Notes: generated from the letters alone by a model not told the origin. 64,000 bases of DNA from Dehalococcoidia bacterium (GCA_030608005.1 JAUWIX010000002.1:817-64816); one strand, 5' to 3'. Numbered from the stretch's first letter, positions 6,680 through 45,981 are shown. Translations and numbers: made by a program.

Positions 6680-6681
6680 TC

Positions 6682-21135: not shown

Positions 21136-21260
21136 GCCTCCTGGCAGTGGCATATTTTCCACAAAGGGTTGCCCCCTCAGTATCGTCTGCGCTGGGGCGT
21201 TTCACTTCCGTGTTCGGAATGGGAACGGGTGGTTCCACCCCGCTCTAACCACCAGAAGGC
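21136..21260 (-). rRNA. rrf: 5S ribosomal RNA (solitary)
   Basis: The reverse complement reads GCCUUCUGGUGGUUAGAGCGGGGUGGAACCACCCGUUCCCAUUCCGAACACGGAAGUGAAACGCCCCAGCGC...CCACUGCCAGGAGGC. This aligns along its length with bacterial 5S, and the ends pair as helix I. The ends are accurate to about 3 nt. Confidence 0.88.
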
Positions 21261-22622: not shown

Positions 22623-23306
22623 ATGGCTAAAAAAGAGATAACTATTGCCCTTGCCGGCAATCCCAATTCGGGCAAGACCACAGTGTTCAACAATTTGACC
22701 GGAGCCCGCCAGCATGTAGGAAACTGGCCAGGGGTAACCGTGGAGAAGAAGGAGGGAAGCTGTAGCTATCAAGGCTATCACATCAAGGTGGTTGACCTGC
22801 CTGGAGTCTATAGCCTTACTGCTTATTCCCCGGACGAGGTTATTGCCCGAAATTTCATCGTTGACGAGAAACCGGATGCGGTGGTGGACATTGTTGATGC
22901 CTCAAATCTGGAGCGAAATCTTTATCTTGCCGTCCAGATTCTGGAGATGGGGGCGCCACTTATCATAGCCCTCAACATGATGGATATGGCTGAATCCAGA
23001 AAGTACAGAATTGATGTTGAAGCTCTGGCTCAGGAAATTGGTGCCCCGGTAGTCCCCATGGTGGCTAACCGTAACCGAGGGACTGATGAGCTACTCAGGG
23101 AAATAGTGAATGTGTTTGAGGGAAAAGCTAATAAGAAAAAGATTAAGTTATATTATGGAAGTGAACTGGAGGAACACATAAACCAGCTGGAAGACCTCAT
23201 TTCTCATGACGAAGAGCTTTCCCGCCAGTTCTCACCGAGGTGGCTGGCAATAAAGCTCATTGAGCAGGATAAGGAAGTGCTCCAGAGGATAGGGGGTAAA
23301 TTATGA
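22623..23306 (+). CDS. feoB: FeoB N-terminal GTPase (G-domain plus part of the helical domain), separate polypeptide
   Basis: It has G1 [10 protein letters not shown]3 DLPG and G4 NMMD. It ends with a TGA inside an ATGA overlap with the next ORF. Confidence 0.85.
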
Positions 23307-24643
23307 GCCGGGAAGAAATTCTACAAACTAAGGACAAGATTATTACCCACCTCCGAGGCATTTTGGGCGATGATGCCGAAACTATAATTGCTGAGAGAAG
23401 GTACGGTTTCATCAGCGGACTGCTTAAGGATGTTTTAAAGAAACCTCCCATTGAGCGGCTTACCCTCTCAGACAACATTGATAAGGTAGTCGTCAATCGC
23501 TGGCTGGGTATTCCTCTGTTTCTGGCGCTACTGTATGGGGTGTTCCAGTTTGTCTTCACCCTGTCGGGACCATTTATGGACTGGATTGACCAGTTCTTTG
23601 GCTGGCTGGGAGGATATGCTTCTGGCGTTTCTCCAGACTGGCTAGGTTCGCTACTGGCTGACGGTATTATTGGCGGCCTCGGCTCGGTGCTCATCTTCAT
23701 TCCGCCAATATTCTTGTTGTTTATCGCCATTGCAGTTCTGGAGGACTGCGGCTACATGGCTCGGGGGGCGTTCGTTATGGACCGAATAATGCACAAAGTC
23801 GGACTTCATGGTCGTTCCTTCATTCCGATGATTCTGGGCTTTGGCTGCAATATCCCGGGGATTATGGCCTGCCGCACCATAGAGAACCCCAAGGACAGGC
23901 TGACTACTATCTTAATCAATCCCTTCATGTCCTGCGGCGCCAGGCTCCCCATATTCGTGCTCCTGGCGGCTGCCTTTTTCACCGCCAACCAGGGGCTGGT
24001 GGTCTTCTCTATGTACATCATCGGGATTATCGTTGCCATCTTCATGGCACTGGTACTCCGTAAGAGCATTCTAAAAGGTCCCAGTGGCCACTTCGTTATG
24101 GAACTACCGCCTTACCGCCTGCCTACTGTAACCGGGGTGCTGGTGCACATGTGGGAGCGAGGGAGCTTGTTCTTAAGGAAGGCAGGAACCATCATCTTTG
24201 GCGTGGTGGTGCTGGTCTGGCTGCTTAGCAGCCTGCCCTGGGGGGTAGAATACGCCAGTGCTGAGAGCTGGATAGGTCAGATTGGTAGCTTCATTGCCCC
24301 GGTGTTTGCTCCCTGCGGCTTCGGCCAGTGGCAGGCAGCGGTCAGCCTACTCTTTGGCTTCTTAGCCAAGGAGGTAGTGGTCGGCACTATGGGCGCCATA
24401 TTTGCTGTTGAGGAAGGAATTTTAGGTGGGGCTATTGCTGCTCAGCTTGGCTGGACGCCACTTATTGCCTTTGCCTTCATGGTCTTCTGCCTGCTCTATG
24501 CCCCCTGCGTGGCTGCTATCGGTGTCATCCGGGGTGAGACCAACTCCTGGAAGTGGGCTGGGTTTGCCGCCCTCTACACCACCGTAGTTGCCTGGATAGC
24601 TGCCACTCTTATCTTCCAGGTCGGAAGGCTTTTCGTGGGTTAA
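23303..24643 (+). CDS. feoB: FeoB membrane permease domain, separate polypeptide
   Basis: It is 446 aa and polytopic, with gate motifs typical of the FeoB C-terminal domain ([22 protein letters not shown]). Confidence 0.85.
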
Positions 24644-25064: not shown

Positions 25065-25871
25065 TTGGGCGATATTGTGGAAATTAACCTACCATTTGCC
25101 ATGCTGCTTACTACCCTGGCTGGGTTATCCACTGGAATAGGCAGCACCATTGCTTTCTTTATCCGGAGACCAAAATACTCCTATTTAGCCGTCCTGCTTG
25201 GCTTCTCTGCCGGCGTAATGCTCTACATCTCTTTCGCCGAACTCCTCAGAACAGCTATCGCAGATGTTGGCTTTCTCACCGCCAATATAGCATTTTTCAT
25301 CGGCATATTGGTTATTGCAGTGATAGATATACTTGTTCCCCATGAGTATGAGGAAGAGCATGTAGAGCGGCGGGAGAAATCAGGCTTGCCCCCAAAGCTT
25401 GCAGCTCCTTCACAGTCAACTCTTATGAGGTCTGGTATCTTTGTCGCACTTGGTCTCGCTATCCACAACTTTCCAGAGGGGTTGGTCACTTTTAGTTGTG
25501 CCGCTACTGGTGATATTGCCTTCGGGATAATGATAGCTGTGGCTATTGCTATCCACAATATTCCCGAGGGCATTTCGGTATCGGTGCCCATCTTTTATGC
25601 CACAGGCAGTCGTCGCCGGGCTTTCACCATATCATTCCTATCGGGGGTAGCTGAGCCTGTGGGCGCTCTCATTGGCTACGCGATACTACTTCCCTTCCTG
25701 ACCCCTGCGCTGCTGTCAAGCCTCCTGGCTTTCGTGGCGGGTATAATGATTTTTATAAGCTTGGATGAAATACTCCCACTAGCTCACCGATACGGTCAGG
25801 AGCACCTCGTCATCATAGGGGTAACGGCTGGCATGCTGGTCATGGCAGTTAGCTTGCTATTGCTACATTAG
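25065..25871 (+). CDS. zupT: ZIP-family zinc transporter ZupT
   Basis: It has AIHNFPEGL and IAIHNIPEGISV motifs and about 8 TM helices. Confidence 0.85.
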   Translation: MGDIVEINLPFAMLLTTLAGLSTGIGSTIAFFIRRPKYSYLAVLLGFSAGVMLYISFAELLRTAIADVGFLTANIAFFIGILVIAVIDILVPHEYEEEHVERREKSGLPPKLAAPSQSTLMRSGIFVALGLAIHNFPEGLVTFSCAATGDIAFGIMIAVAIAIHNIPEGISVSVPIFYATGSRRRAFTISFLSGVAEPVGALIGYAILLPFLTPALLSSLLAFVAGIMIFISLDEILPLAHRYGQEHLVIIGVTAGMLVMAVSLLLLH

Positions 25872-30261: not shown

Positions 30262-30309
30262 ACAATATGCTTGCATTTTTATCTAAATCCTTGTATCCTT
30301 ATCGAAAAG

Positions 30310-30535
30310 AATAGATGACCTGGAGGTGTCCGAGCTAGCTTGGGCATAACGGAGAGCAAGTCGGTGGAAGTCCGACGCAGTCCCGCCTACTGTGACTGAT
30401 AGATAATCTCTATCAGAAGCCAGAACGCCAACCTCCGGGCATCCTCAAACCTCCGCGGAGAAAGGGGGCGGGATGATGCTCAGAATGGATTGAGGAATCC
30501 CCCCTTGCACTAGAAGCAGAGGGGGATTAGTTTTG
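30310..30535 (+). promoter_or_regulatory. Cobalamin (B12) riboswitch with terminator-type expression platform
   Basis: The core is GGUGGAAGUCCGACGCAGUCCCGCCUACUGU (30363-30392) followed by GAAGCCAGAAC. P1 is cctggaggt/acctccggg. The hairpin aatccccc...gggggatt at 30496-30528 is followed by UUUU. Confidence 0.8.
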
Positions 30536-30564: not shown

Positions 30565-31482
30565 ATGAGAGTTATGAGATTAGTCATTGGTGTATTTATC
30601 ATTTTGAGCTTATTGGTAACTATGAGCGTGGGCTGCGCCCAGCCCTCTTTGCCAGCAACCTTTGTTGATGATATGGGCAGGGAGGTAACCATAAACGAGA
30701 TTCCACTGAAGATTGTGTCTCATGTGCCAAGCATCACCGAGACCCTTTTTGCCCTTGGCTTGGGGGAAAGGGTGGTTGGAGTCAGCGACTATTGTGACTA
30801 CCCTGAGGAGGCGAAGTCAAAACCAAGCGTCGGGAATTACTTTAACCCTTCCATTGAAAGTATCGTGGCTCTAGAACCGGATTTGGTGCTGACCGATGGG
30901 CATAGTGAAAGCATTAAACAGCTTGATGAACTGAGACCGCCAATTACCTATATGGTTATAGACCCTAAGGACATTGATGGCATTTTTAGAGACCTTGAAT
31001 TGCTGGGGAGGGTTACCGGCACCGAGAGGGAAGCTGAGAAGCTCATTGAGGATATGCAGAAGGATATATCTCATGTTCTCGCTTTGGTGGAAGGTGCTCC
31101 CCCAATTAGGGTTCTCTATATAATTGATGCTACTGACCCAACCCTGCCCTGGACGGCTGGTCCTGGCTCCTTTGTTGACTGGCTTATCACTATGGCTGGT
31201 GGGGAAAATATTGCTGCTGGAGCCCAGGGTGCCTGGGTGCAATTCAGCATCGAGCAGATAGTTAGCTCTGACCCTGAGGTTATCATACTCCCAGCTAAGC
31301 ATGGGACGGTGTTTACATCACCAGAAGTGCTACAGGGACACCCTATCTGGCAGAAGGTAACAGCGGTCAAGCAAGACAGAATCTGCATTATTGATGGAGA
31401 CCTTGTTGACCGCTCTGGACCCAGAATTGTTCAGGGTCTGGAGGAGATGGCAAGAATCATTCACCCTGAGCTATTTGAATAG
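30565..31482 (+). CDS. btuF: Corrinoid/siderophore-type ABC transporter substrate-binding lipoprotein (BtuF-like)
   Basis: It has a lipobox (MSVGCAQ) and a class III SBP pattern (IVSHVPSITETLFALG, VVGVSDYCDYP, PDLVL). It lies immediately downstream of the B12 riboswitch. Confidence 0.8.
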   Translation: MRVMRLVIGVFIILSLLVTMSVGCAQPSLPATFVDDMGREVTINEIPLKIVSHVPSITETLFALGLGERVVGVSDYCDYPEEAKSKPSVGNYFNPSIESIVALEPDLVLTDGHSESIKQLDELRPPITYMVIDPKDIDGIFRDLELLGRVTGTEREAEKLIEDMQKDISHVLALVEGAPPIRVLYIIDATDPTLPWTAGPGSFVDWLITMAGGENIAAGAQGAWVQFSIEQIVSSDPEVIILPAKHGTVFTSPEVLQGHPIWQKVTAVKQDRICIIDGDLVDRSGPRIVQGLEEMARIIHPELFE

Positions 31483-31507
31483 CAGAAACTTGATATGGGA
31501 GACAGAA

Positions 31508-32578
31508 ATGCCGGGACTTTTATCCGATACAATTGAAATGATAAAGCCTCTGGATAAAGAAGCAATGGCTGAAGCACGCTCCAGGCAGGACCAGTTGACC
31601 AAGCCCCAGGGTAGTTTGGGCAGGCTGGAGGAGCTATCTATTAAGTTGGCTGGCATTCAGGGTAAGCCTATACCTCAAATCAGGCACAAAGCCATTATCA
31701 TTATGGCTGGCGACCATGGGGTGGTGGTTGAGGGGGTGAGTGCTTACCCCGGGGAGGTAACCGCTCAGATGGTTTATAACTTCCTCAACGGCGGGGCTGG
31801 AATAAATGTGCTTGCTCGTCAAGCTGGAGCAAGGGTTGTTGTGGTTGATATGGGGATGGCAGCTGAGCTAGAAGCTAACCCTCGGCTTATATCCAGGAAG
31901 GTTGCCTTTGGCACCCAAAATATGTGTCTCTGCCCGGCTATGACCCTGGAGCAGGCAATGACATCAGTAGAGTCAGGGATTGAGGTGGTGGGGGCTGAGG
32001 TGGCTAGGGGTCTTGATATAGTTGGCACCGGTGATATGGGTATTGGTAACACTACTACCAGCAGCGCTATCTGTGCCGCTATGACTGGGAAACCGGTGGC
32101 TGAGGTAGTGGGTAGGGGCACTGGCATAACCGATGAGCAGTTGACACATAAAATAGAAGTGATAAAAAGAGCGCTAGCGGTTAACCACCCTGACCCCCGA
32201 AAGCCTTTAGATGTGCTGGCAAAGGTGGGAGGCTTTGAGATTGGTGGGCTGGTGGGGGTGATGCTGGCAGCGGCTGCTTACCGTATTCCTGTAGTTATTG
32301 ATGGTTTTATCTCTGGGGCAGCTGCCCTTATTGCTCTGGCGCTGGCACCGGGACTGCGGGACTTCCTTATCGCCGCTCATGTTTCGGCAGAGGCCGGTCA
32401 TAAACTGCTGCTCAGGCACCTGGGGCTTAAGCCCTTACTGGATTTGGACCTGCGTTTGGGTGAGGGGACTGGTGCTGCATTGGGAATATTTCTGGCTGAG
32501 GCGTCAGCCAGGACCCTAGCTGAGATGTCCACCTTCGCTGAAGCTGGAGTATCAGAAAGGGAGAAACCGGGCAATTGA
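31508..32578 (+). CDS. cobT: Nicotinate-nucleotide--dimethylbenzimidazole phosphoribosyltransferase
   Basis: It has LTKPQGSLGRLEEL, MAGDHGV, GDMGIGNTT and EGTGA motifs. The ATG at 31508 after GGGAGA is preferred over the track start, which overlaps btuF. Confidence 0.9.
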   Translation: MPGLLSDTIEMIKPLDKEAMAEARSRQDQLTKPQGSLGRLEELSIKLAGIQGKPIPQIRHKAIIIMAGDHGVVVEGVSAYPGEVTAQMVYNFLNGGAGINVLARQAGARVVVVDMGMAAELEANPRLISRKVAFGTQNMCLCPAMTLEQAMTSVESGIEVVGAEVARGLDIVGTGDMGIGNTTTSSAICAAMTGKPVAEVVGRGTGITDEQLTHKIEVIKRALAVNHPDPRKPLDVLAKVGGFEIGGLVGVMLAAAAYRIPVVIDGFISGAAALIALALAPGLRDFLIAAHVSAEAGHKLLLRHLGLKPLLDLDLRLGEGTGAALGIFLAEASARTLAEMSTFAEAGVSEREKPGN

Positions 32579-33324
32579 AGCTCTTAGCTGCTTTAAGATT
32601 TCTAACCATTATACCCTTGCCCGGGCGGCGCGAGATTAGCCCCGAGGAAGTAGGACGCTCTATAGTTTATTTCCCTCTGGTCGGTGTTATTATTGGGCTT
32701 ATTCTGGTTGGCTTGAATTGGCTACTGGGTCTGCTGTTGCCTTCAGCATTAGTTAATGTGCTGTTGGTCGTTTCTCTGGTGGCGATTAGCGGCGCTTTGC
32801 ACCTTGATGGCTTTATTGATACTTGCGACGGCTTAGCCAGTCACAAGACGGTGGAGGAGAGGTGGCGAGTGATGGCTGATAGCCGGGCTGGCAGTTTTGG
32901 TATTATCGGTGTCTGTTGCTTGCTGCTGGTCAAATATGTCTCACTGAATGCTGTGCCTGAGAGCTGGCTGATGCCGACCCTGGTGCTTATGCCGGTGGTA
33001 AGTCGTTGGGCAATGGTCTATGCTGTTTTTGCCTATCCTTATGCTAAGCCATCGGGTTTGGGAAAGGCATTTAAGCAGGGGGCTAGCTGGCAGAGGTTCA
33101 CTGTGGCAACGCTCATAACTTTGGCTGTGGCAGTGGTTCTGGCTCAACTGACAGGCTTTATTATAATGTTAGCTGTTTGGGTTATAGTAGTAGCTATGGC
33201 TGCCTATTTGAAGGGTAAGTTTGGTGGGCTTACTGGTGACACCTATGGGGCGATAAATGAAGTGGCTGAGGTTTGCCTTCTCATTCTGGTTTGTCTGCTG
33301 GCTCACCTCCGGTGGTTGGGCTAG
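32575..33324 (+). CDS. cobS: Adenosylcobinamide-GDP ribazoletransferase (cobalamin synthase)
   Basis: It has LRFLTIIPLP, HLDGFIDTCDG and GLTGDTYGA motifs. Its TTG start overlaps the cobT stop. Confidence 0.9.
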   Translation: MKLLAALRFLTIIPLPGRREISPEEVGRSIVYFPLVGVIIGLILVGLNWLLGLLLPSALVNVLLVVSLVAISGALHLDGFIDTCDGLASHKTVEERWRVMADSRAGSFGIIGVCCLLLVKYVSLNAVPESWLMPTLVLMPVVSRWAMVYAVFAYPYAKPSGLGKAFKQGASWQRFTVATLITLAVAVVLAQLTGFIIMLAVWVIVVAMAAYLKGKFGGLTGDTYGAINEVAEVCLLILVCLLAHLRWLG

Positions 33325-33371
33325 GTGAAAAATATTTTATTTAGGGGGGCAAGCTGAGCGAAAGGTGTGTT

Positions 33372-33923
33372 CTGATAATTGGCGGCGCTGGTAGTGGCAA
33401 GAGCCACTTTGCCCAGGAGCTTGCCAAAAAGCTGGGCGAGCCGGTGCTTTTTGTGGCTACGGCGGTGGCTGGCGATGAGGAGATGCGCCAGCGCATTGAG
33501 CAGCATCAGAGAACAAGGTCAGCAGCCTGGCGCACCCTTGAGGTTACCTCGCATCTCGGCAGCCAGATTGAGCAGAAAATCGGTGGTGCTCAGGTGGTGA
33601 TTGTGGACTGTATCACCCTTCTGGTTAACAATATTTTCAGTCAACACAGCGACCAAACTGGTGAGCAATTAGATGCCCCCCTTATTGAGAGGAAGCTTAT
33701 TGCTGAAGTTAGTGAGCTGGTAGAGTGCATCGGCCGGGTTAATGCCAACTTCATTATTGTTACCAATGAGGTTGGTCTGGGCTTGGTGCCAGCTAATAGA
33801 ATGGGCAGGTTATATCGTGATTTGCTGGCTAAAGCCAACCAGATGCTGGCGCAGGCTGCCGATGAGGTCTATATAATGGTCGCTGGCTTACCGTTGCCGA
33901 TAAAGCCAGCCAAGGGGTTATAG
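33372..33923 (+). CDS. cobU: Adenosylcobinamide kinase / adenosylcobinamide-phosphate guanylyltransferase
   Basis: The P-loop IIGGAGSGKS lies upstream of the first ATG (33444). There is no ATG/GTG/TTG after the in-frame TAG at 33342. The likely start is CTG at 33372 (SD AAAGG, 6-nt spacer) or CTG at 33354. Confidence 0.8.
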   Translation: MIIGGAGSGKSHFAQELAKKLGEPVLFVATAVAGDEEMRQRIEQHQRTRSAAWRTLEVTSHLGSQIEQKIGGAQVVIVDCITLLVNNIFSQHSDQTGEQLDAPLIERKLIAEVSELVECIGRVNANFIIVTNEVGLGLVPANRMGRLYRDLLAKANQMLAQAADEVYIMVAGLPLPIKPAKGL

Positions 33924-34682
33924 CCTTGGTCTTCGCCGTAGTGTTTCCTCTAGATTCAGGGGCACGACTTCTGGTTTTGGAGCCTGATACACATTTACCG
34001 CCTTTAGTCCGACAAATTCCTTTTCTATAATAGCCATTTCCTCTGGTGTTAATGGCTTGATAGGACAGGGGCGTAGCGGGGTGTCAAGCTGCACTTCATC
34101 AGGTGAAATTTGCCTAGCTATCTCTGCCATCTGTCTGGCATAGTCCTTATTTTTGGCGATGAACATCATTTGCAGGGCTAGCTTTCCCTTGAATTCCTTT
34201 CTGAATTGCTCTATGGAACGGAGTATTAGGTCAAGGGAATAGCCCACTATAGGTCTATTAATCTGGCGGAAAATCTGCTCAGCGGGGGCATCTATTTTGG
34301 CTACCACTACATCTGCCCCCATTAACTCATGACGCACTTCTTTTCTTGGCATGAGGGAGGAGTTGGTCAGAATTGCCACTGGCAGCGGCAGGATTGATTT
34401 GACTAGCTTTATAGCCTCTCCCAGGTTGCTGGCTAGGGTAGGTTCTCCTGTCCCGGAGAAGGTAACATAGTCAGCCGATATGCCTCTTACTGCCTCCAGC
34501 TCTTTGACTAACTGAGCAGTTAGCACGAACTGTTTTCGCTCCAGTTGGGGGTTGATTGTTCTGCCTAGCTGACAGTAGATGCAGTCGAAGGAGCAGGTCT
34601 TTTTCCCGGTAGAGATTAAATCTATCCCTAAGGACCTGCCTAGCCGCCACGAAGGGACGGGACCATAGATTATAGAGTTCAT
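33918..34682 (-). CDS. Radical SAM protein (function unknown)
   Basis: It has GPVPSWRLGRSLGIDL...CSFDCIYCQ (CxxxCxxC) and is 254 aa. Its stop overlaps the cobU stop (TTATAG). Confidence 0.7.
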   Translation of the reverse strand: MNSIIYGPVPSWRLGRSLGIDLISTGKKTCSFDCIYCQLGRTINPQLERKQFVLTAQLVKELEAVRGISADYVTFSGTGEPTLASNLGEAIKLVKSILPLPVAILTNSSLMPRKEVRHELMGADVVVAKIDAPAEQIFRQINRPIVGYSLDLILRSIEQFRKEFKGKLALQMMFIAKNKDYARQMAEIARQISPDEVQLDTPLRPCPIKPLTPEEMAIIEKEFVGLKAVNVYQAPKPEVVPLNLEETLRRRPRL

Positions 34683-34700
34683 CCTCCACCTCGTTTGTTT

Positions 34701-35531
34701 TTATATTGGCCACCCCAGCCAGTCAAAGACGCCGAGCATCTTTAGTCCCATGTAGAACATTATAGCAATGAAGATATAGCTTAGTTGTTTGGCTGGCAGC
34801 TTGTGGGCAGTTATAGCACCAATCTGTGCCATACCAACGCTGGTAACCGCCAGCAGAAACCATGATGTCAGGTTAACATAGCCGATGGTATAAGCCAAAT
34901 CTTGCAATTGGGGAACACCAAGACCATTTATAATATAACCGATAACACCACCGGTGCTGGTAAAGAGCATCACGGCTAAAGATGTGGCTATGGCATTATG
35001 CATCTTGAACCCGAGTGCCAGCACCATTACCGGAATCATCAATACCCCGCCACCAACTCCAAGAATGCCAGTTACCATACCTATTGGGATAGCCCAGGCT
35101 GCCCACAGCCATGGATTGTCCTTAGGCTCCTGTTCAATTTCTGGTGCTTTGGCGGTGAGCATTCTGATACCAGCCAGCAAAATTATAGCGCCAAAGGCTA
35201 TTTTTAGCCCTTCCCCGGGGAGGTGGGTAGCCAAGGTAGCCCCGCCAAAAGCACAAACTAGACCGCAGCTGCCCATGACAATGGCTGCTTTCCACCACAC
35301 CGCTTCCTTTTTGCTGTGCCTCCAGGCTCCGCTGGCGGCTGTGGGCAAAACAACCAGCAAACTGGTGCCAAACGCTAGCTTAATAGCTGTATCGGTAGGA
35401 ATGCCCATATCGGTGAATACCATGTACTGAACCGGGGTCATGATGAAGCAGCCGCCAACACCTAGAAGACCGCTGGCAAAGCCAACGCCAATACCGGTTG
35501 CTAGCAAAATAATGATATGAACTATGGTCAC
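34701..35531 (-). CDS. TauE/SafE family anion (sulfite-type) exporter
   Basis: It has 7-8 TM helices with duplicated G(V/L)GGG motifs (LLGVGGCFIMTP, ILGVGGGVLMIP). Confidence 0.8.
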   Translation of the reverse strand: MTIVHIIILLATGIGVGFASGLLGVGGCFIMTPVQYMVFTDMGIPTDTAIKLAFGTSLLVVLPTAASGAWRHSKKEAVWWKAAIVMGSCGLVCAFGGATLATHLPGEGLKIAFGAIILLAGIRMLTAKAPEIEQEPKDNPWLWAAWAIPIGMVTGILGVGGGVLMIPVMVLALGFKMHNAIATSLAVMLFTSTGGVIGYIINGLGVPQLQDLAYTIGYVNLTSWFLLAVTSVGMAQIGAITAHKLPAKQLSYIFIAIMFYMGLKMLGVFDWLGWPI

Positions 35532-36232
35532 CCGGCTATTTTCTCCACATCTAGCTTCACGCCGAGAAAGGCGCCAAAGGGGTTATTGACGAAAAGCAAC
35601 AACCTCTCCAGCTGGCGAAGATACTTATGCCAGCTTAATGGAAAAAACAGGGTGCTTCGCCACTCCAGAGGCACTTTCCCTACTGCTCTTTTGACTGTTG
35701 CTTCTATCTCCCAGATACTATAAAACTTCGCCCGGTTATAAACTGATTCCCGAAATCTACCCTTAATTCGGCGATTTATTGCCAGCAATGAGGTTTTGCT
35801 TAAAATTCCTAAGTAAATTTGTGCCCGCGCCACCCGAGACGCTTCCTTGAGCACTTTGGTTGGGTCGGAAACAAATTCTAACATGGTGATTAAAGTAACG
35901 ATGTCAAAAGAGTGTTTATCAAATGGCAATTTCTCAGCTTGCCCCAAATAAAGCTCAACATCGGTGCCGAGCCTCTTGGCTGCAATATCCAGCATCGGCT
36001 TGGAGGCATCAATGCCAACAGCCTTCAGCCCCAATTCCTTGAAAAACGCCAGGTTATATCCTGTGCCACAGCCGATATCGAGCAGGCTCTGACCACATTT
36101 AGGTTGAATCAGCTTGAGAAACAGCTCCTTTTCTAGGGCATCGGCGTATTGTCCCTGTGGTGTCTGATACCAAAGGTCATATTGCGTAGCCTGGGCATCA
36201 AACAGAGTCCTCTCCCAATTATATGCCATCAA
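35528..36232 (-). CDS. Class I SAM-dependent methyltransferase
   Basis: It has motif I LLDIGCGTGYN and a 4-nt overlap with the downstream gene. Confidence 0.7.
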   Translation of the reverse strand: MMAYNWERTLFDAQATQYDLWYQTPQGQYADALEKELFLKLIQPKCGQSLLDIGCGTGYNLAFFKELGLKAVGIDASKPMLDIAAKRLGTDVELYLGQAEKLPFDKHSFDIVTLITMLEFVSDPTKVLKEASRVARAQIYLGILSKTSLLAINRRIKGRFRESVYNRAKFYSIWEIEATVKRAVGKVPLEWRSTLFFPLSWHKYLRQLERLLLFVNNPFGAFLGVKLDVEKIAG

Positions 36233-36521
36233 ACCAACCGTGGTAGTATCTTCTTAGGTACTCATCGTGGGGATAGGTTCTTCTTACATCCTCTTCATTG
36301 AAGGAGTAACTATATTGAGCGCAATATTGCATTATTAGCTCGTATGCCTCGTTTATCTTTTTCATCATCTCGGCGCATTTTACCGTATCTGGGTCTTTAC
36401 ACTTATCAGGATGGTAGCGATTAGCCGCCCTTTTGTAGGCTGCTTTTATCTGCTTAAGTGTCGCTGTTTCTCCTAAGCCCAGTAACTCTCGTGCTTGACT
36501 TATTTGCTCAAAATCGGCCAC
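36219..36521 (-). CDS. J-domain (DnaJ-like) protein, 100 aa
   Basis: It reads LKQIKAAYKRAANRYHPDK, with the HPD motif. There is no G/F region or zinc-finger region. Confidence 0.7.
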   Translation of the reverse strand: MADFEQISQARELLGLGETATLKQIKAAYKRAANRYHPDKCKDPDTVKCAEMMKKINEAYELIMQYCAQYSYSFNEEDVRRTYPHDEYLRRYYHGWFDGI

Positions 36522-36523
36522 AC

Positions 36524-36829
36524 CTAATGCCCTAATTGTTTCTTCACTGATTCTATCTTGCCGCTCGTGCTGGAGGTTTTATCTCGCCGGTCATCAATCT
36601 CAATTATTGTTACCGCTCTCATAACTCCGGCATTGAAGACGGCTTCATGCATCTTCCGGGCTAAGGTGAGGAGGCGGTCTAAATCACCCTCAATAATTGT
36701 TCCCATTGCCGTTAGCTCATATTTTATATCCTTCTCACCCCGCAATACCTCCACCGCCCGGGCTACATATTGGCTAACTGAAGTGGTTCCAGTGCCCAAA
36801 GGAATAATGCTGACCTTAATTATTGCCAT
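36524..36829 (-). CDS. UPF0045 / MTH1187-YkoF-like (thiamine-binding-protein fold) protein
   Basis: It reads MAIIKVSIIPLGTGTTSVSQYVARAVEVL...YELTAMGTIIEGDLD, typical of this family. Confidence 0.75.
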   Translation of the reverse strand: MAIIKVSIIPLGTGTTSVSQYVARAVEVLRGEKDIKYELTAMGTIIEGDLDRLLTLARKMHEAVFNAGVMRAVTIIEIDDRRDKTSSTSGKIESVKKQLGH

Positions 36830-36870
36830 TTCTAGGACCTCAGCTTACTTTATCGAATTGAGTGGATGAT

Positions 36871-37263
36871 TTAATGCAGGCGCTCCATCAGGTTGGTCAG
36901 TTCGCCAGCTATATATAGTTGCACTGCTTGGTCAATGCTTTCTACATCGGTGACAATAGGCTCAATATTGTAGCTTTTCATGCTTTCATAGGCTCCCCAG
37001 CCCATCCCCCCGGCAAGGAGAACCTGGCAGTCAGAGATAGTCTCGGCCATGCTTTGATGCCTCGTCGGTGAGTCGGCGTGGTAGCCATGGCGCTCACCGG
37101 GGGCTAAATCAGGGTGGGAGGCAAAGCTGTGGTGCCCGCTCTTGGCTCGGGTCTCCTTATTCACAATTTCGCCCTCTTCCACTGTAACCACTACATAGAG
37201 AGACGCCCGACCGAAGTGCTGGCTGATAGTCTTTCCATCATCAGATATAGCTGCAATTTTCAT
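36871..37263 (-). CDS. NifX/NifB-C-terminal-like (dinitrogenase FeMo-cofactor-binding fold, MTH1175-like) protein
   Basis: It reads MKIAAISDDGKTISQHFGRA...CQVLLAGGMGWGAYESMKSYNIEPIV, the characteristic pattern of this family. Confidence 0.75.
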   Translation of the reverse strand: MKIAAISDDGKTISQHFGRASLYVVVTVEEGEIVNKETRAKSGHHSFASHPDLAPGERHGYHADSPTRHQSMAETISDCQVLLAGGMGWGAYESMKSYNIEPIVTDVESIDQAVQLYIAGELTNLMERLH

Positions 37264-37324
37264 CTGGTCTCCTTTGAGGTGTAAGTAAAGGTAAGCACTG
37301 CTGACATGAGATAACTGAGGGGAA

Positions 37325-37555
37325 TTATGCCCTTACCATCTTTGTGCCGCACTGGGGGCAGCTCAGACTATAGCAGGGAGCTCCTACTTGGTGAGGGAGC
37401 GTGGCGCCACAGTTGGGGCAAACACAATTTCCGCTTGGGCCGGCTCCGGGGCGGGTTCCTCCCATCCTGCCACCCCCCCTTCCCCCTCGGCCAATGCCTC
37501 CCCCTCTTCCTGCACCGCCACCCGGGGGCGGACCAGTTCTGTCTCCTCTAGGCAT
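37325..37555 (-). CDS. Gly/Arg-rich protein with C-terminal C4 zinc ribbon (DUF5320-type N-terminus)
   Basis: It reads MPRGDRTGPPPGGGAGRGGGIGRGGRGGGRMGG...CVCPNCGATLPHQVGAPCYSLSCPQCGTKM. Confidence 0.6.
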   Translation of the reverse strand: MPRGDRTGPPPGGGAGRGGGIGRGGRGGGRMGGTRPGAGPSGNCVCPNCGATLPHQVGAPCYSLSCPQCGTKMVRA

Positions 37556-37571
37556 GAAACACCTCCAACTC

Positions 37572-37796
37572 TTACTCCATTGGCGGCAGCCCGCAAACGC
37601 CCGAGGTGCAGGTGGGACAACTAATCTCTGAAGACTCAGTTGTTCTTGAACTCGGGCTAAAGAAAGGGGAGAGAAGTCTTCTCGGATTTTTTGTCTTGCA
37701 CTTAGGACACTCTAACTTAGAGCCATCCTCCCCAATAGATTGACGGACTTCAAACTTCTCTCCGCACTGGGGGCACTGGTATTCATAGAGTGGCAT
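37572..37796 (-). CDS. FmdB-family zinc-ribbon protein
   Basis: MPLYEYQCPQCGEKFEV...CPKCKT is the canonical FmdB/CxxC-CxxC ribbon. It has a Cys-rich tail, CPTCTSGVCG. Confidence 0.7.
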   Translation of the reverse strand: MPLYEYQCPQCGEKFEVRQSIGEDGSKLECPKCKTKNPRRLLSPFFSPSSRTTESSEISCPTCTSGVCGLPPME

Positions 37797-37800
37797 GGTA

Positions 37801-38427
37801 TTACTCCCCTCGCTTTTCTAGCTCTTCAATGTGGCGCTGCATCTCAGCTAATTGTTGCATTAGCATCTGTGATTGTGCCTTGAGTGTCTCTAGCTCCTGC
37901 TCCGGGCTTGACGGCTGGGGTGCCGGTTCAGTCATAGGCATCATCTCTGCTCCCATGCCCATTCCTCTACCCATACCCATGCCGCGCCCCATACCTCGCC
38001 CCATGCCCATTCCTCTACCCATGCCCATACCAGAGCCCATGCCCATACCAGAGCCCATGCCCGGTCCTACACCGAAGTGAGCTCCTACACTAGGCTGTGC
38101 AGTAGCCTGTGATTGTCCCGATTTATAGGTTTGGATAGCATCACTGATTTTCCCAGAAAGGCCGGTGATTATCTGAACCCCGGCTGCTGACAATACCTGG
38201 TAGGCATTGGGACCACAGTTGCCTGTAATCACCACTTGCACCCCTTTGCTGACAATCATCTGGGCGGTGGAAATACCAGCCCCACCCCCTGCCATAACAT
38301 TGGGGTTCTCCATAGATTCGTATTGCATTGTCTCCGGGTCGGCAATGATAAAATACTGACATCTACCAAAACGAGGGTCTATATCAGCATCCAGAGTTGG
38401 ACCTGTAGCCGAAATAGCAATTCTCAT
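37801..38427 (-). CDS. NifX/MTH1175-like domain fused to a (G-M-G/R)n repeat and a DUF5320-type C-terminal helix
   Basis: The N-terminus is MRIAISATGPTLDADIDPRFGRCQYF...VVITGNCGPNAYQVL. It is followed by GMGSGMGMGSGMGMGRGMGMGRGMGRGMGMGRGMGMG and then PEQELETLKAQSQMLMQQLAEMQRHIEELE. Confidence 0.75.
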   Translation of the reverse strand: MRIAISATGPTLDADIDPRFGRCQYFIIADPETMQYESMENPNVMAGGGAGISTAQMIVSKGVQVVITGNCGPNAYQVLSAAGVQIITGLSGKISDAIQTYKSGQSQATAQPSVGAHFGVGPGMGSGMGMGSGMGMGRGMGMGRGMGRGMGMGRGMGMGAEMMPMTEPAPQPSSPEQELETLKAQSQMLMQQLAEMQRHIEELEKRGE

Positions 38428-38430
38428 AAC

Positions 38431-38754
38431 TTACCCCTTTGTCCCTAACTCACGCATTCGGGACTCAATTTGCTCCAGTTGGCTCTTTATAGTTTGGGCT
38501 TGATTCTTCAGGAAGTCAAATTCCTGCTCGGGGGTCATCTGTGGGGTGGGAGATATAGTCCCAGGAGCGGTTGTTGGCGCTCCATAAAATGGGTATGGTA
38601 TTCCTGCACCGTAATATGGATAGCCGTATCCCATCCTCGGAGGAATCCCATACGCACGAGGAGCTGCACCTATTCCCCAAGGGCTGCAGAATCCCCTACC
38701 TCCTCCTGTCATTGGTCCCATTCCTCTAGGACCCATTCCATCAAATCCTGGCAT
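38431..38754 (-). CDS. DUF5320-type low-complexity protein (paralog B)
   Basis: It has the N-terminus MPGFDGMGPRGMGPMTGGGRGFC, a Tyr/Pro/Gly-rich middle region and the C-terminal helix TPEQEFDFLKNQAQTIKSQLEQIESRMRELG. Confidence 0.7.
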   Translation of the reverse strand: MPGFDGMGPRGMGPMTGGGRGFCSPWGIGAAPRAYGIPPRMGYGYPYYGAGIPYPFYGAPTTAPGTISPTPQMTPEQEFDFLKNQAQTIKSQLEQIESRMRELGTKG

Positions 38755-38784
38755 AATCCACCTCCTTCATCAATTGTACGATAA

Positions 38785-39111
38785 TTATTCTCCTGTCCCT
38801 AACTCATGCATTCGGGACTCAATCTGTTCCAGCTGGCTCTTTATAGTTTGGGCTTGATTCTTCAGGAAGTCAAGTTCCTGCTCAGGGGTCATCTGGGGGG
38901 TGAAAGGTGCAGTCTCAGGAGCGGTTACTGGTGCTCCATAAAATGGGGAAGGTGCTTGCATTGCTGGCCAGTAAGGCGCTGTATATAGTCCGGGATACCA
39001 GCACCTAGGCAATCCTCCTCTACCCAGACCAACATAAGGCCAGGACGGAGAAGCACCTCTGAAACCGAATCCCCTTCCTCCCCGAAATCCATAGCCAAAT
39101 CCATTGGGCAT
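38785..39111 (-). CDS. DUF5320-type low-complexity protein (paralog A)
   Basis: It has the N-terminus MPNGFGYGFRGGRGFGFRG, an aromatic/Pro-rich middle region and a C-terminal helix nearly identical to that of paralog B. Confidence 0.65.
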   Translation of the reverse strand: MPNGFGYGFRGGRGFGFRGASPSWPYVGLGRGGLPRCWYPGLYTAPYWPAMQAPSPFYGAPVTAPETAPFTPQMTPEQELDFLKNQAQTIKSQLEQIESRMHELGTGE

Positions 39112-39160
39112 AACATCACCTCCTATTATAAATGTTAAACTTGGCTCGGTTCAATGGCTA

Positions 39161-39394
39161 CTACCATCGGTAAGGGGTATAAGGTGGATAGTAGGCGCCA
39201 GAGTATGGGTAACCATATCCCATATAAGGAGTGGTTGCCGCATGCTGACCGGCATAAGGTGTTGCCCACCACCATCTTGGTAGCCAAGGGTAAAAGCGGC
39301 AGAAGGGATAAGGGTTACCCCTTCCCCATCCTAGACCACGTCCCCAGCCACGTCCCCAGCCACGTCCCCATCCAAACCAGCCTCTCCCTCTCAT
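39161..39394 (-). CDS. Gly/Trp/Arg-repeat, Tyr/Pro-rich small protein (77 aa)
   Basis: The ATG at 39394 follows the SD GAAGGTGA. The product is MRGRGWFGWGRGWGRGWGRGLGWGRGNPYPFCRFYPWLPRWWW...YYPPYTPYRW. The track start at 39496 lies upstream of the predicted promoter. Confidence 0.55.
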   Translation of the reverse strand: MRGRGWFGWGRGWGRGWGRGLGWGRGNPYPFCRFYPWLPRWWWATPYAGQHAATTPYMGYGYPYSGAYYPPYTPYRW

Positions 39395-39437
39395 TTTATC
39401 ACCTTCCCTTTGATATTCGCTTTTTCCTAGCAAAATT

Positions 39438-39480
39438 ATGAACTTATGTTCATAATAATACAGTAGGTTAAGTTTGTCAA
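39438..39480 (-). promoter_or_regulatory. Near-consensus promoter (TTGACA-17-TATTAT) with overlapping palindrome ATGAAC-N4-GTTCAT for the low-complexity/NifX-like operon
   Basis: On the minus strand the -35 is at 39480-39475 and the -10 at 39457-39452. A perfect 6-4-6 palindrome is at 39438-39453. Confidence 0.55.
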
Positions 39481-39502
39481 GTCTTTGGGACAACATCGCA
39501 AA

Positions 39503-39531
39503 TTGCGAATAAGACTCCTTGTTGCTATAAT
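39503..39531 (+). promoter_or_regulatory. Promoter for tRNA-Ala (TTGCGA-17-TATAAT)
   Basis: The -35 is at 39503-39508 and the -10 at 39526-39531. The tRNA begins 14 nt downstream. Confidence 0.5.
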
Positions 39532-39544
39532 ATCCTTAACAGGT

Positions 39545-39617
39545 GGGGCTGTAGCTCAGTTGGGAGAGTGCCTCCTTTGCACGGAGGAAGTCAGGGGTTC
39601 GAGTCCCCTCAGCTCCA
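39545..39617 (+). tRNA. tRNA-Ala (anticodon UGC)
   Basis: It folds as a cloverleaf. The acceptor stem is GGGGCUG/CAGCUCC with the G3:U70 alanine identity pair, and the anticodon loop is CUUUGCAC. The T-arm is GGGGUUCGAGUCCCC. CCA is not encoded. Confidence 0.95.
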
Positions 39618-39640
39618 CTTAGAGACTCAGTGGCAGGTAG

Positions 39641-40420
39641 ATGAGCAAGCTTATAGATGAATTGAGTCAGGTTTCACAGGTTGGGCTCCAGCCTATGGGG
39701 TTTAGGGCGGCGCAGGCGGTGCCACACAAGCCCAAGATGTTGCTCATTGCCAGTCTAGCTCAGGTCGATGTTGACCGTTTGGCTGATTGTGTGGCTGGGG
39801 CTGATGCCGGGCTGTTACAAATCCCCAAATCGAGTTCAGGGGTTAAAGCCCTTCAGGAAATATGTCAGGCGATGTCTGACATTCCTTGGGGTGGCTGGCT
39901 GAGGGATATCGGCAGGGAAAAAGGAATAAGGCAGATGGTGAAGGCTGGCTGTGATTTTGTGGTTTTCCCGGCAGCAAAGACATCGCTGGCAATACTTCAG
40001 GATGATGAGTTGGGCAAGATATTAGAGGTCGAGCCATTGCTCAACGAAGGCTTATTGAAAGCAGTCGATGACCTACCTATAGATGCTGTGCTTATTGCCA
40101 GTGAGCAAAGGAAGGATTATTTTCTTACTTGGCATCACCTCATGCTCTTTCGGCGTTGTGCCGACCTGTTTACTAAACCCTTGTTGGTCTCTGTGCCGTC
40201 AGGTGTGGTAGCCAACGAGCTTCAGGCTCTATGGGAAGTGGGGGTGGGTGGCGTGGTGGTGGAAGCCGGAATTGAACAGCCTGTGGGAAGATTAGCCGAG
40301 CTGCGCCAGACGATTGATAAACTGACCTTCCCGCCACCAGGCAAGCGGCGAAAAGCAGAGCCTTTGCTTCCTTATATTCGTGGAGAGACAGAAATAGTAT
40401 CTGAAGAGGAAGAAGAATAG
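39641..40420 (+). CDS. Hypothetical protein (259 aa, acidic EEEEE C-terminus)
   Basis: It is a long ORF with coding-like composition. No motif was recognised. The alternating beta/alpha-like pattern could indicate a TIM-barrel. Confidence 0.4.
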   Translation: MSKLIDELSQVSQVGLQPMGFRAAQAVPHKPKMLLIASLAQVDVDRLADCVAGADAGLLQIPKSSSGVKALQEICQAMSDIPWGGWLRDIGREKGIRQMVKAGCDFVVFPAAKTSLAILQDDELGKILEVEPLLNEGLLKAVDDLPIDAVLIASEQRKDYFLTWHHLMLFRRCADLFTKPLLVSVPSGVVANELQALWEVGVGGVVVEAGIEQPVGRLAELRQTIDKLTFPPPGKRRKAEPLLPYIRGETEIVSEEEEE

Positions 40421-45042: not shown

Positions 45043-45981
45043 GTGAAGAGCAAGTTAAACAAATTTTTGCGTTATCTTCAGATTGAGAAGGGGTTTTCTC
45101 AGGGCACTATCAAAGCATACCAACTTGATATAGAGAAAGGGCTGATTCCCTTCCTGCATCAGCGAGGTAAATTTGAAGTAGGAGAAGTCACCAAGAATGA
45201 CATTCGAGACTATCTGGACTATGTAGCTACTAGCAGAGGTAACTCCAATGTTACCAGGGCACGAAAACTGGCAGCGATAAAGTCGTTCTTCAACTACCTG
45301 ATAGAGACTGAAGAGTTAGAACTTAACCCAGCAGCCTCAATAAGGAGCCCTAAGATACCAGAGAAGGAGCCAGTGTACCTTACCGATGACGAGTCTATTC
45401 GCCTTTTGAGGACAATAACTCGAAAGGGCAGGCCACGGGTTCGTGAACGGGACTTAGCGATGGTTGTCCTCTTCCTTCACACTGGGCTGAGGGTATCGGA
45501 GTTGACAAAACTGAAGCTAGTCAATGTTGACCTTGACCGGGGTCAGATAAAGATAACCAGGAAAGGAAATAAAGAGCAGCATCTCCATCTGAATGGCGAA
45601 ACAGCAAGGGCATTGGCAAATTACCTAGCCAACCGTCCGGGGGCTCGAAACGGTAGATTCTTCGTTGGCACCAATGGGGGCAATCTGGATCGTGGCTATG
45701 TTTATGGTGTGGTACGAAGATACTTAAATTTGGCAGGCATCAATAAGGGTAAGCAGGGTCCTCACCTCCTAAGGCACACCTTCTGCACCAGATTACATCA
45801 GAAGGGAGTGGCACCCTTCACCATAAAAGACCTCGCTGGTCACAAAAGTCTTAACACCACCATGAGGTATATTAAGATTGAGAATAAGGAGCAGGCTGAA
45901 GCGATTGACCGGCTGGAATTTGGTATCCTTATAGGGGGGGGGTGCTCAATCTCGCCAAAGGTTGATAAGCAATCTAGGTAG
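45043..45981 (+). CDS. Tyrosine recombinase (XerC/XerD-integrase family)
   Basis: It has an N-terminal SAM-like core-binding domain (FLRYLQIEKGFSQGTIKAYQLDI). The catalytic residues are R (HTGLRVSEL), HLLRHTF and Y (TTMRYI). It has a GTG start after AAAGGAGG. Confidence 0.85.
   Translation: MKSKLNKFLRYLQIEKGFSQGTIKAYQLDIEKGLIPFLHQRGKFEVGEVTKNDIRDYLDYVATSRGNSNVTRARKLAAIKSFFNYLIETEELELNPAASIRSPKIPEKEPVYLTDDESIRLLRTITRKGRPRVRERDLAMVVLFLHTGLRVSELTKLKLVNVDLDRGQIKITRKGNKEQHLHLNGETARALANYLANRPGARNGRFFVGTNGGNLDRGYVYGVVRRYLNLAGINKGKQGPHLLRHTFCTRLHQKGVAPFTIKDLAGHKSLNTTMRYIKIENKEQAEAIDRLEFGILIGGGCSISPKVDKQSR

Follow-up and report, generated by a model that had tools for sequence, protein, structure and literature searches.

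A DUF5320-rich operon of a Dehalococcoidia bacterium as a variant of the ORP gene cluster

The DNA studied here is a stretch of 64,000 nucleotides (nt) from a Dehalococcoidia bacterium (GCA_030608005.1, JAUWIX010000002.1:817-64816), to which we refer in its full length as the window. Listing of open reading frames (ORFs), reading of the sequence and profile searches delineate on its minus strand a string of 12 co-directional genes, g1 to g12 (33918-39394), whose products comprise low-complexity proteins of the DUF5320 type, NifX-like proteins, small Cys-rich ribbon proteins and a set of accessory proteins. An initial annotation had described nine packed minus-strand genes behind a near-consensus promoter as a candidate for an unrecognised system. 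The nine genes and the promoter are indeed present, and three further genes (g10-g12) can be added to them, but the cluster as such is not new: it is a variant of the orange protein (ORP) gene cluster of Desulfovibrio, a known, although poorly understood, kind of gene set. With a probability of roughly 0.6, we regard it as a reduced, Dehalococcoidia-type version of this cluster in which a coiled-coil hub would tether metallocluster carriers.

Architecture of the operon and its proteins

The genes g1 to g9 are separated by gaps of 2-61 nt, g10 overlaps g9 by 14 nt, g11 overlaps g10 by 4 nt, and 18 nt lie between g11 and g12; AGGAGG-like ribosome-binding sites are found at most of the genes. A predicted sigma-70-type promoter, TTGACA-17-TATTAT, is positioned about 50 nt 5' of the g1 start codon (39452..39480, minus strand); it agrees with the consensus at 11 of 12 positions and is the best such site within 33500-40000. 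Taken together, the promoter-like sites of this region show no enrichment over shuffled sequences (eight were found, 7.0 were expected), and it is consequently through its position and quality that this particular site can be proposed to function as a promoter. A second promoter-like site with 10 of 12 matches lies immediately 5' of g2. In the initial annotation, g1 began at position 39496, which yields an ORF of 111 amino acids (aa) that starts 5' of the -35 box. Since the promoter would then fall inside the coding region, we place the start of g1 at the ATG at 39394, behind the ribosome-binding site GGAAGGTG, so that the product has 77 aa. The interval of 36524-39496 given previously for the gene group covers g1 to g8 but leaves the J-domain gene g9 outside. 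Upstream, the operon is bounded by a tRNA-Ala gene (39545-39618, plus strand), and downstream the end of g12 meets a convergent corrinoid-salvage operon. A riboswitch in the leader, for the molybdenum cofactor or any other ligand, was considered and discarded, as Rfam returned no match in this cluster or in four related loci.

Three of the products, g1 to g3, are conserved paralogues of the DUF5320 superfamily (all gene coordinates below refer to the minus strand). They had been recognised from the outset as small low-complexity proteins, which is correct, and had been ascribed a common signature, MPxFDGxGPxGMGPMTGxGRGFC, which is not: this signature occurs in g3 only, and g1 and g2 carry other conserved N-termini. 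The canonical member is g3 (38431-38754; PF17253, E 2e-19, 71.0 bits), in which the N-terminal motif MPGFDGxGPRGMGPMTGGGRGFC is followed by a Tyr/Gly/Pro arm and a C-terminal helix. The product of g2 (38785-39111; PF17253, E 5e-8, 34.3 bits) represents a separate paralogue class, class C, with the N-terminus GFGFRGASPxWPYVGLGRGGLPRC, a disordered arm and a C-terminal coiled coil. The W/G/R/Y/P-rich g1 protein (39161-39394), of which 75% consists of the residues G, M, R, Y, P and W, has a coding (WGRG)3 tandem repeat (39336-39374) and a single Cys that is part of an NPYPFCRF motif; it lacks a coiled coil. Judged by the PF17253 gathering threshold of 27 bits, g3, g2 and the tail of g4 (see below) lie above the cut-off, and g1, for which no Pfam match was obtained, is outside of the model.

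The conservation that the initial annotation had expected of the low-complexity ORFs is borne out by homologues with invariant residues and by an excess of substitutions at third codon positions. More than 1,300 homologues of g3 exist at the 90% cluster level and more than 6,200 with a broader profile; in an exhaustive HMMER scan, DUF5320 amounted to 2,125 representative clusters (50% identity), the great majority of them 66-190 aa long and matched from residue 1 onwards, and the motif itself begins at residue 1 in almost every one of the 150 best representatives of the family. The alignment of the g3 family has invariant columns at M1, P2, G3, F4, G6, G8, P9, G11, G13, P14, T16, G17-19, R20, G21 and C23, and the C-terminal helix is conserved as well. 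Relative to four orthologous loci, the differences at codon positions 1/2/3 amount to 38/32/96 for g1, 139/119/223 for g2, 75/44/183 for g3, 156/130/393 for g4 and 51/31/151 for g6; the ORFs on the opposite strand are mirror artefacts of the repeats. By their N-terminal motifs, the DUF5320 paralogues fall into classes typified by MP[GFRN]xDGTGP...GPMTGxGxG[FY]C, by the g2 sequence (class C, found in at least 20 loci), by RNxYYATGLPGW, and by the NPYPFCRF motif of g1, the latter being restricted to the closest relatives (homologues of g1 were detected in the loci L008, with an E value of 6e-32, L005, L006 and L010).

DUF5320-type proteins are modular, consisting of a short and almost invariant N-terminal motif with a single Cys at its end (or a variant of this motif that likewise has one Cys), a disordered arm rich in Tyr, Trp, Gly, Arg and Pro, and an amphipathic helix of four heptads. 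An AlphaFold2 model of g3 leaves residues 1-74 disordered, with predicted local distance difference test (pLDDT) scores below 52, and forms a helix from residues 75 to 106 (pLDDT 77-89). Among 146 tails, hydrophobic residues occupy the a and d positions in strict 3-4-3-4 spacing over four heptads. The C-terminal halves of the g2 and g3 proteins are 77% identical, and at the DNA level a direct repeat of 160 nt with 89% identity (minus strand; 38440..38599 in g3, 38794-38953 in g2) encodes the shared linker and coiled coil. This repeat is far more alike than the remainder of the two genes, which suggests a recent duplication or gene conversion; gene conversion would keep the two helices nearly identical (27 of 29 residues). 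The ...GRGFC motif might be mistaken for that of a lipoprotein, a reading that we dropped upon inspection of the sequence as there is no hydrophobic signal region.

Profile searches also confirmed each of the domain assignments made earlier: two NifX/MTH1175-like proteins, an MTH1187-like protein, an FmdB ribbon, a Gly/Arg-rich ribbon and a J domain. The first of the NifX-like proteins, g4 (37801-38427), joins an N-terminal ORP-type NifX/Nitro_FeMo-Co domain (aa 1-104, 38116..38427; PF02579, E 7e-25) via a Met/Gly/Arg linker of GMG and GRG units (aa 118-160, 37948..38076; a coding tandem repeat with a period of 12/18) to a C-terminal coiled coil (aa 172-206, 37810..37914), with PF17253 matching across aa 118-203 (E 4e-11, 44.2 bits). 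The tail of g4 and the DUF5320 helix are homologues, as a BLASTP comparison with the tail of g3 shows (E 2e-7). AlphaFold2, run on the single sequence, modelled the alpha/beta domain with low confidence, left residues 103-174 disordered and predicted a helix at 175-206 (pLDDT 73-93). The second NifX-like protein, g7 (36871-37263; PF02579, E 7e-16), belongs to a subfamily of 130-132 aa with a His-rich insert, GHHxFAxH..LAPGERHGY..RH, that is retained in all orthologues recovered (L008, L011, L013, L014, L036, L044 and L071; E 1e-41 to 2e-66). We predict g4 to be an ORP-fold cluster carrier and g7 to be a second, NifX-like carrier.

Both proteins belong to the fold family of NifX, NafY, the C-terminal domain of NifB and MTH1175 (PF02579), which in nif systems carries the iron-molybdenum cofactor or its precursors. 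An association with nitrogen fixation was nevertheless rejected. As the initial annotation had noted, nitrogenase genes are not found nearby: neither nifHDK nor nifEN nor nifB was present among the large ORFs scanned across the window. The TIGR nifX model matches g7 at 1e-4 and g4 not at all, the nifX and nifB models remain far below their cut-offs, and g4 resembles ORP and MTH1175 more than it does NifX.

Between the two carriers lie two small ribbon proteins. The FmdB-type ribbon g5 (37572-37796; PF09723, Zn_ribbon_8, E 3e-16; TIGR02605, E 1e-17) has the arrangement CxxC...CxxC. The small G/R-rich and Cys-rich protein g6 (37325-37555) begins with a degenerate version of the DUF5320 motif, MPRGDRTGP, and ends in a module with six Cys and one His, CxCPxCG....H..GxPC....CPxCG. 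In the g6 family (53 sequences from 52 loci), the six Cys and the His are each at least 90% conserved, and 45 of the 53 sequences start with MPxx[DN]xTGP, as in DUF5320; the shared motif is supported at the level of the family only, as a BLASTP comparison of g3 with g6 in the window was not significant.

Related loci and the ORP gene cluster

For the comparison of gene neighbourhoods, we relied on the best 80 of at least 478 related loci, with one genome per species, in which the Bipolaricaulota, Atribacterota, Desulfobacterota, Thermotogae, Omnitrophota, Planctomycetota and Latescibacterota are represented beside the Dehalococcoidia. The co-occurrence of DUF5320 with NifX-like genes for which the initial annotation had called is near-exceptionless, and the gene order is fixed. 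When the positions of NifX domains were counted with a domain-restricted, non-iterated search, 72 NifX-domain genes fell into the first kilobase (kb) downstream of the anchoring DUF5320 gene and a second peak of 27 at +3 kb; about 470 kb of upstream flank, which serve as an internal control for both co-occurrence and order, contained only two. DUF5320 is located immediately upstream of an ORP-type NifX gene in 57 of the 73 loci that offer at least 1.5 kb of downstream sequence. The first NifX gene is typically followed by a 6-Cys/1-His protein, two MinD-like [4Fe-4S] ATPases, the second NifX, Mrp/NBP35, NifU and a radical SAM enzyme; in the relatives, the g6-family gene directly precedes the two ATPase genes. 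In the 33 loci whose flanks are well covered, NifX is present in 32, CbiA/Fer4 ATPases in 31, DUF134 and the g6 family in 29 each, NifU in 23, radical SAM enzymes in 21, Mrp in 19 and the FmdB ribbon in 17; methyltransferases (14), ARMT1 (10), J-domain proteins (9) and TauE (8) are less frequent, and MTH1187 is found in none of them. FmdB ribbons of the g5 type occur in 39 of the 80 loci and also in the ORP-proper loci L084, L085 and L087.

The composite architecture of g4 is not a peculiarity of the window. Among the 63 ORP-type NifX genes that directly follow DUF5320, a tail of 40 aa or more is encoded by 41, three or more G[MR]G units in varying copy number are found in 40, and 38 possess the heptad coil; the complete arrangement of ORP domain, (GMG)n linker and coil is realised in 34-38 of the 63. 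Fusions of a similar kind connect these tails to other carriers. In L027, the NifX-GMG protein encoded directly downstream of DUF5320 is fused to the 6-Cys/1-His module of g6; in L092 (8114-8530) and L006 (3157-3573), a 2x[4Fe-4S] ferredoxin of 65 aa is fused to a W/Y-rich tail of the g1 type; and in L094 (983-1552), a ferredoxin is joined to a DUF5320 coiled-coil protein. The g1 protein of the window stands alone, without a ferredoxin domain.

A relative at 66% identity, the Chloroflexota metagenome-assembled genome (MAG) L003/L010, shows what a complete set looks like. It contains g1 to g6 in the same order and with 60-70% identity, preceded by DUF134 and DUF364; after g6 follow two CbiA/ParA ATPases with ferredoxin inserts, a NifX protein of 112 aa, Mrp/NBP35 and NifU_N, and further downstream MobB, a methyltransferase, a radical SAM enzyme and ARMT1. 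The full gene set is likewise retained by relatives whose DUF5320 proteins are 77-79% identical to that of the window. In the entire 64-kb window, by contrast, neither the ATPases (searched by tblastn with the CbiA/Fer4 proteins of L003) nor Mrp, NifU or DUF134 were found. Since those close relatives keep the full set, the ATPase-less arrangement of the window is a derived one. The same arrangement is present in L001 and L002, which are independent assemblies; the only other loci devoid of the ATPases are L051 and L081 and the shorter L004, L058 and L068. At the opposite end, a locus from a Firmicute comprises a minimal trio of an Mrp-like ATPase, DUF5320 and NifX. In a Caldicoprobacter-like contig (L096), the trio lies directly downstream of ftsE/ftsX and of genes for a PcsB-like M23 peptidase and a CtpB-like protein, neighbours that are of interest given the link to cell division that has been proposed for ORP.

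The ORP complex of D. vulgaris contains the MinD-like [4Fe-4S] ATPases Orp3 and Orp4, the small Fe-S protein Orp5, ORP itself (Orp8) and MrpORP (Orp9) (PMC6345978, PMC8359166), and this composition of Orp3/4/5/8/9 is matched by the protein families of the related loci. The best match in the PDB for aa 2-112 of g4 is the ORP of D. gigas (2WFB_A, E 1.6e-20), with MTH1175 ranking next; the NifX domains of the window match the C-terminal domain of the NCBIfam model for MrpORP, and against the P-loop part of that model the L003 Mrp protein reaches 323 bits, a better score than against ApbC. Consequently, the view that the families of this operon have no described role outside of nif systems does not hold, as the NifX-like fold has been described there in the form of ORP and MrpORP. 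As to whether the cluster is already characterised, this is true in part: purification of the ORP complex has been achieved and some of its biochemistry described, and its physiological role is unsettled.

Regarding the small components, Orp5, a homologue of which binds a [2Fe-2S] cluster, is encoded in the order orp5-orp4-orp3, and orp7 is the first gene of orp7-orp8-orp9, directly upstream of ORP (PMC6345978, PMC8359166). Homologues of Orp8 carry a non-covalent [S2MoS2CuS2MoS2] cluster (PMC6345978), and the orp operons of Desulfovibrio vulgaris Hildenborough are controlled by the redox sensor OrpR and by sigma54 (PMC6345978, PMC8359166). Searches with the D. gigas ORP as the query led to the ORP loci L084-L091, of which only L090 has an annotated DUF5320. 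The ORP of L090 is 70% identical to that of D. gigas; the locus encodes two CbiA/Fer4 ATPases and places an OrpR-like PAS-sigma54 activator between a fusion of NifX with the g6 module (705-1313) and the DUF5320 gene, a layout that mirrors orp5/orpR/orp7. By their synteny, DUF5320 may be Orp7-like, and g6 is a candidate for an Fe-S protein of the Orp5 type. When deltaproteobacterial DUF5320 sequences served as the query of a profile search, no match in a named Desulfovibrio was obtained. In L085, a protein of 112 aa made of (GQGR)n with Cys and without the DUF5320 motif is encoded between DUF134 and ORP (6414-6752); this protein might be a disordered partner that is analogous without being related.

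The window thus resembles the ORP cluster in its ORP-fold protein and its small Cys-rich proteins, and its relatives share with that cluster the two MinD-like [4Fe-4S] ATPases, Mrp/NBP35 and the confinement to anaerobes. It differs from it in several respects. The two MinD-like ATPases, Mrp, DUF134 and a sigma54 activator are missing (no gene for an enhancer-binding protein was found in Pfam scans of the large ORFs of the window), and the predicted promoter is sigma-70-like; the ORP domain is extended by the (GMG)n linker and the coiled-coil tail; three DUF5320-type paralogues take the place of a single orp7; and a His-rich NifX, an MTH1187 protein, a J-domain protein, a methyltransferase, a TauE-like permease and a radical SAM enzyme are added. 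Because the two ATPases, Mrp and the sigma54/OrpR control are absent, we file the locus as a variant of the ORP cluster and not as a strict member.

For the function of DUF5320, no publication was found in the literature searched, and searches for DUF5320, DUF134, COG1433, COG1149 and MTH1175 yielded no relevant items beyond the Desulfovibrio ORP papers. The attachment of DUF5320 to the ORP cluster, its modular anatomy, the N-terminal motif that it has in common with the 6-Cys family and the fusions of its tail are undescribed in this literature.

Functional interpretation

Given the context of Fe-S and cluster-carrier families, a role in the handling of metalloclusters is the best reading of the locus. 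To this extent the initial annotation, which had proposed a metal or metallocluster handling assembly built on disordered proteins, can be upheld; of its speculation on a condensate or matrix, what the data show is a disordered arm with a coiled coil. The MTH1187-like protein and the J-domain protein, which occur in none and in 13 of the 80 related loci, respectively, lie outside of the conserved system. We propose that the homologous helices of g2, g3 and g4 would assemble into a homo- or hetero-oligomeric coiled coil. On its flexible arms, this hub would hold the ORP domain and the Cys-bearing N-terminal motifs close to g5, g6 and g7, and Fe-S or Mo/W/Cu-S clusters might be kept there before they are handed to client proteins. 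In most of the relatives, the MinD-like [4Fe-4S] ATPases, Mrp/NBP35 and NifU would contribute assembly and energy, and DUF134 would serve in regulation; the bacterium studied here would either have lost the genes for the ATPases, Mrp, NifU and DUF134 from the operon or encode them elsewhere, with the strong sigma-70-type promoter driving the genes that remain.

Should this be correct, it would add the principle of a disordered scaffold to the trafficking of metalloclusters in bacteria. Few 'anaerobe-specific' gene sets are as widespread as the ORP cluster, whose function is unresolved, and our analysis ties to it a large orphan family, DUF5320, with an anatomy that is amenable to testing. The tail fusions to ORP, ferredoxin and 6-Cys modules point to a tethered assembly of several carriers, of which the ATPase-less operon of the window would be a natural minimal version, composed of tethers and carriers.

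Several considerations weigh against this proposal. Metal binding, complex formation and expression of the proteins from this locus are predictions from sequence, and the hetero-oligomeric coiled coil is putative. Each DUF5320 protein has one conserved Cys, for which reason a direct ligation of clusters by the N-terminal motif is speculative. With the ATPases, Mrp, NifU and DUF134 missing from the window, the operon might be a remnant or might work in a different way. The sample of neighbourhoods is dominated by Dehalococcoidia MAGs, the equation of DUF5320 with Orp7, like that of g6 with Orp5, is derived from synteny alone, and the ORP literature itself gives the role of the complex as 'putatively cell division'.

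An alternative that we consider rather unlikely is that the DUF5320-type proteins are adaptors of ParA/MinD-type ATPases, comparable to McdB, MinE or ParB. Their N-terminal MPxxDGTGP sequence would contact or stimulate Orp3/Orp4 or Mrp, and the disordered arm together with the coiled coil would form a positioning or condensate-type hub, as would suit a role of ORP in cell division or at the cell pole. McdB-type partners of ParA/MinD ATPases, known from the positioning of carboxysomes, are small proteins that pair intrinsic disorder with a coiled coil and whose genes stand beside those of the ATPases; McdB has a disordered arm, a coiled coil and a terminal aromatic residue. The likeness to this architecture, drawn from general knowledge, lies in small disordered and coiled-coil proteins next to ParA/MinD-family ATPases. 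The location of the MPxxDGTGP motif at the very N-terminus in nearly all of the 150 best representatives speaks for an adaptor, as does its presence in two otherwise unrelated families beside two CbiA/ParA-family ATPases (31 of 33 loci). The ORP literature, in which a role in septum positioning has been proposed and MrpORP is reported to be polar, is in keeping with it as well. Yet the motif proteins are kept without a cis-encoded ATPase in the window and in L051, L081, L004, L058 and L068, and it is with the NifX/ORP gene, rather than with the ATPases, that DUF5320 is most closely linked. Moreover, the motif is rich in Gly and Pro, unlike the basic peptide typical of ParA partners, and the ATPases, which carry ferredoxin inserts, are absent from the window.

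A broader version of this idea, which we likewise regard as rather unlikely, would see the DUF5320 and g6 families as a hitherto undescribed class of intrinsically disordered organisers whose shared N-terminal peptide docks onto MinD/ParA-type Fe-S ATPases (Orp3/Orp4, Mrp). Coiled coils and aromatic/Arg-rich arms would make up a multivalent, perhaps condensate-like hub in which the small carriers, namely the ORP/NifX, ferredoxin and 6-Cys modules, are concentrated at a particular site in the cell. If true, this would cover both the biochemical (Fe-S/Mo-Cu) and the cytological (polar, cell division) findings on ORP.

It is doubtful that the system is a device for the sequestration of copper and molybdenum in the form of thiomolybdate, in which the GMG arrays would take up Cu(I) and either supply the Mo-Cu-S cluster of ORP or buffer it, for detoxification or storage. 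This explanation builds on the [S2MoS2CuS2MoS2] cluster of the Orp8 homologues (PMC6345978) and on the Met-rich array directly behind the ORP domain, which is conserved in kind across 40 loci, although many orthologues have GRG-rich linkers or no tail at all. The only similarities of the linker to non-NifX entries of the PDB are with the Met-rich loops of multicopper oxidases (E 0.003), a match that is compositional and confined to low-complexity sequence. MobB and radical SAM enzymes with weak similarity to the tungsten-cofactor maturase and MoaA recur in the clusters; the operon, however, encodes no transporter or sensor for copper or molybdate, and NifU, Mrp and the ferredoxin-type ATPases of the canonical cluster point to Fe-S chemistry.

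Very unlikely, in our view, is a pathway for ribosomally synthesized and post-translationally modified peptides (RiPPs) in which g1 to g3 would be the precursors, the radical SAM enzyme and the methyltransferase their modifying enzymes and the TauE-like permease their exporter. Small tandem paralogues do share the operon with a radical SAM enzyme, a SAM-dependent methyltransferase and a membrane permease, but the peptides are conserved from end to end across phyla, the coiled-coil helix included, with no variable core, and their tail also occurs in fusions with folded domains, namely ORP and ferredoxin. Furthermore, the radical SAM protein of 254 aa matches no SPASM or RiPP-maturase model above threshold, and the two enzymes are not always co-encoded (21 of 33 loci for radical SAM, 14 of 33 for the methyltransferase). 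The notion that the genes with recognised domains are the only genuine ones, the low-complexity ORFs having arisen by chance in repetitive DNA, could draw on the coding tandem repeats and on the mirror ORFs of the opposite strand; it is refuted by the conservation data, namely by thousands of homologues with invariant residues, strong ribosome-binding sites, the excess of third-position substitutions and a gene order conserved in other phyla, and its probability is negligible.

Accessory genes and genomic surroundings

The g8 protein (36524-36829) is of the MTH1187/YkoF type (Thiamine_BP, PF01910, E 4e-32; PDB entry 1LXN, E 2e-21) and is a lineage-specific addition. It is followed by g9 (36219-36521), which consists of a J domain only (PF00226, E 1.5e-13), by the class I SAM methyltransferase g10 (35528-36232; Methyltransf_11, E 6e-22), by the TauE/SafE-like membrane permease g11 (34701-35531), which has a weak match to the C-terminal (TauE) region of MamO, and by the last gene of the string, g12 (33918-34682), which encodes the short radical SAM enzyme. 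J-domain, methyltransferase, radical SAM and TauE genes are recurrent accessories: the small J proteins of the related loci mostly adjoin methyltransferase and radical SAM genes, homologues of g11 exist in 11 loci, frequently right after a NifX gene of the g7 type, and g12 is 38% identical to the radical SAM enzyme of the L003 cluster. The NCBIfam matches of g12 are all below threshold and refer to the radical SAM maturase of a tungsten cofactor oxidoreductase and to MoaA. Anti-phage defence was discarded as a function of the locus, as PADLOC gave no match other than a generic radical SAM/viperin similarity of g12.

A MoaA-type radical SAM protein (Radical_SAM plus Mob_synth_C) is encoded about 30 kb from the operon (5693-6679, plus strand). 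The organism can therefore be expected to make a Mo or W cofactor, which bears on the reading of ORP as a Mo/W protein. The corrinoid-salvage genes that converge on g12 (30565-33923) code for a BtuF-like binding protein and for CobT, CobS and CobU; they are preceded by a cobalamin riboswitch (30306-30450, plus strand) that scores 33.3 bits, marginally above the gathering score. On the other side, about 5.5 kb upstream of the operon, lies a gene for a tyrosine recombinase with a Phage_integrase and a SAM-like N-terminal domain (45043-45981, plus strand), which may mark a rearrangement by which the genes for DUF134 and the ATPases were lost.

Elsewhere in the window, an ORF of 446 aa (23303-24643, plus strand) encodes the FeoB Gate and FeoB_C membrane domains and overlaps by 4 nt an ORF of 227 aa (22623-23306), which may be a separate GTPase part and would give rise to a split FeoB; a ZIP metal transporter (25065-25871) follows the two ORFs. 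A lone 5S rRNA gene (21139-21256, minus strand, 91 bits) is present, with no 16S or 23S rRNA detected by Rfam anywhere in the window. Finally, a protein of 661 aa (8822-10807, minus strand) combines collagen-like triple-helix repeats with a NosD/beta-helix domain.

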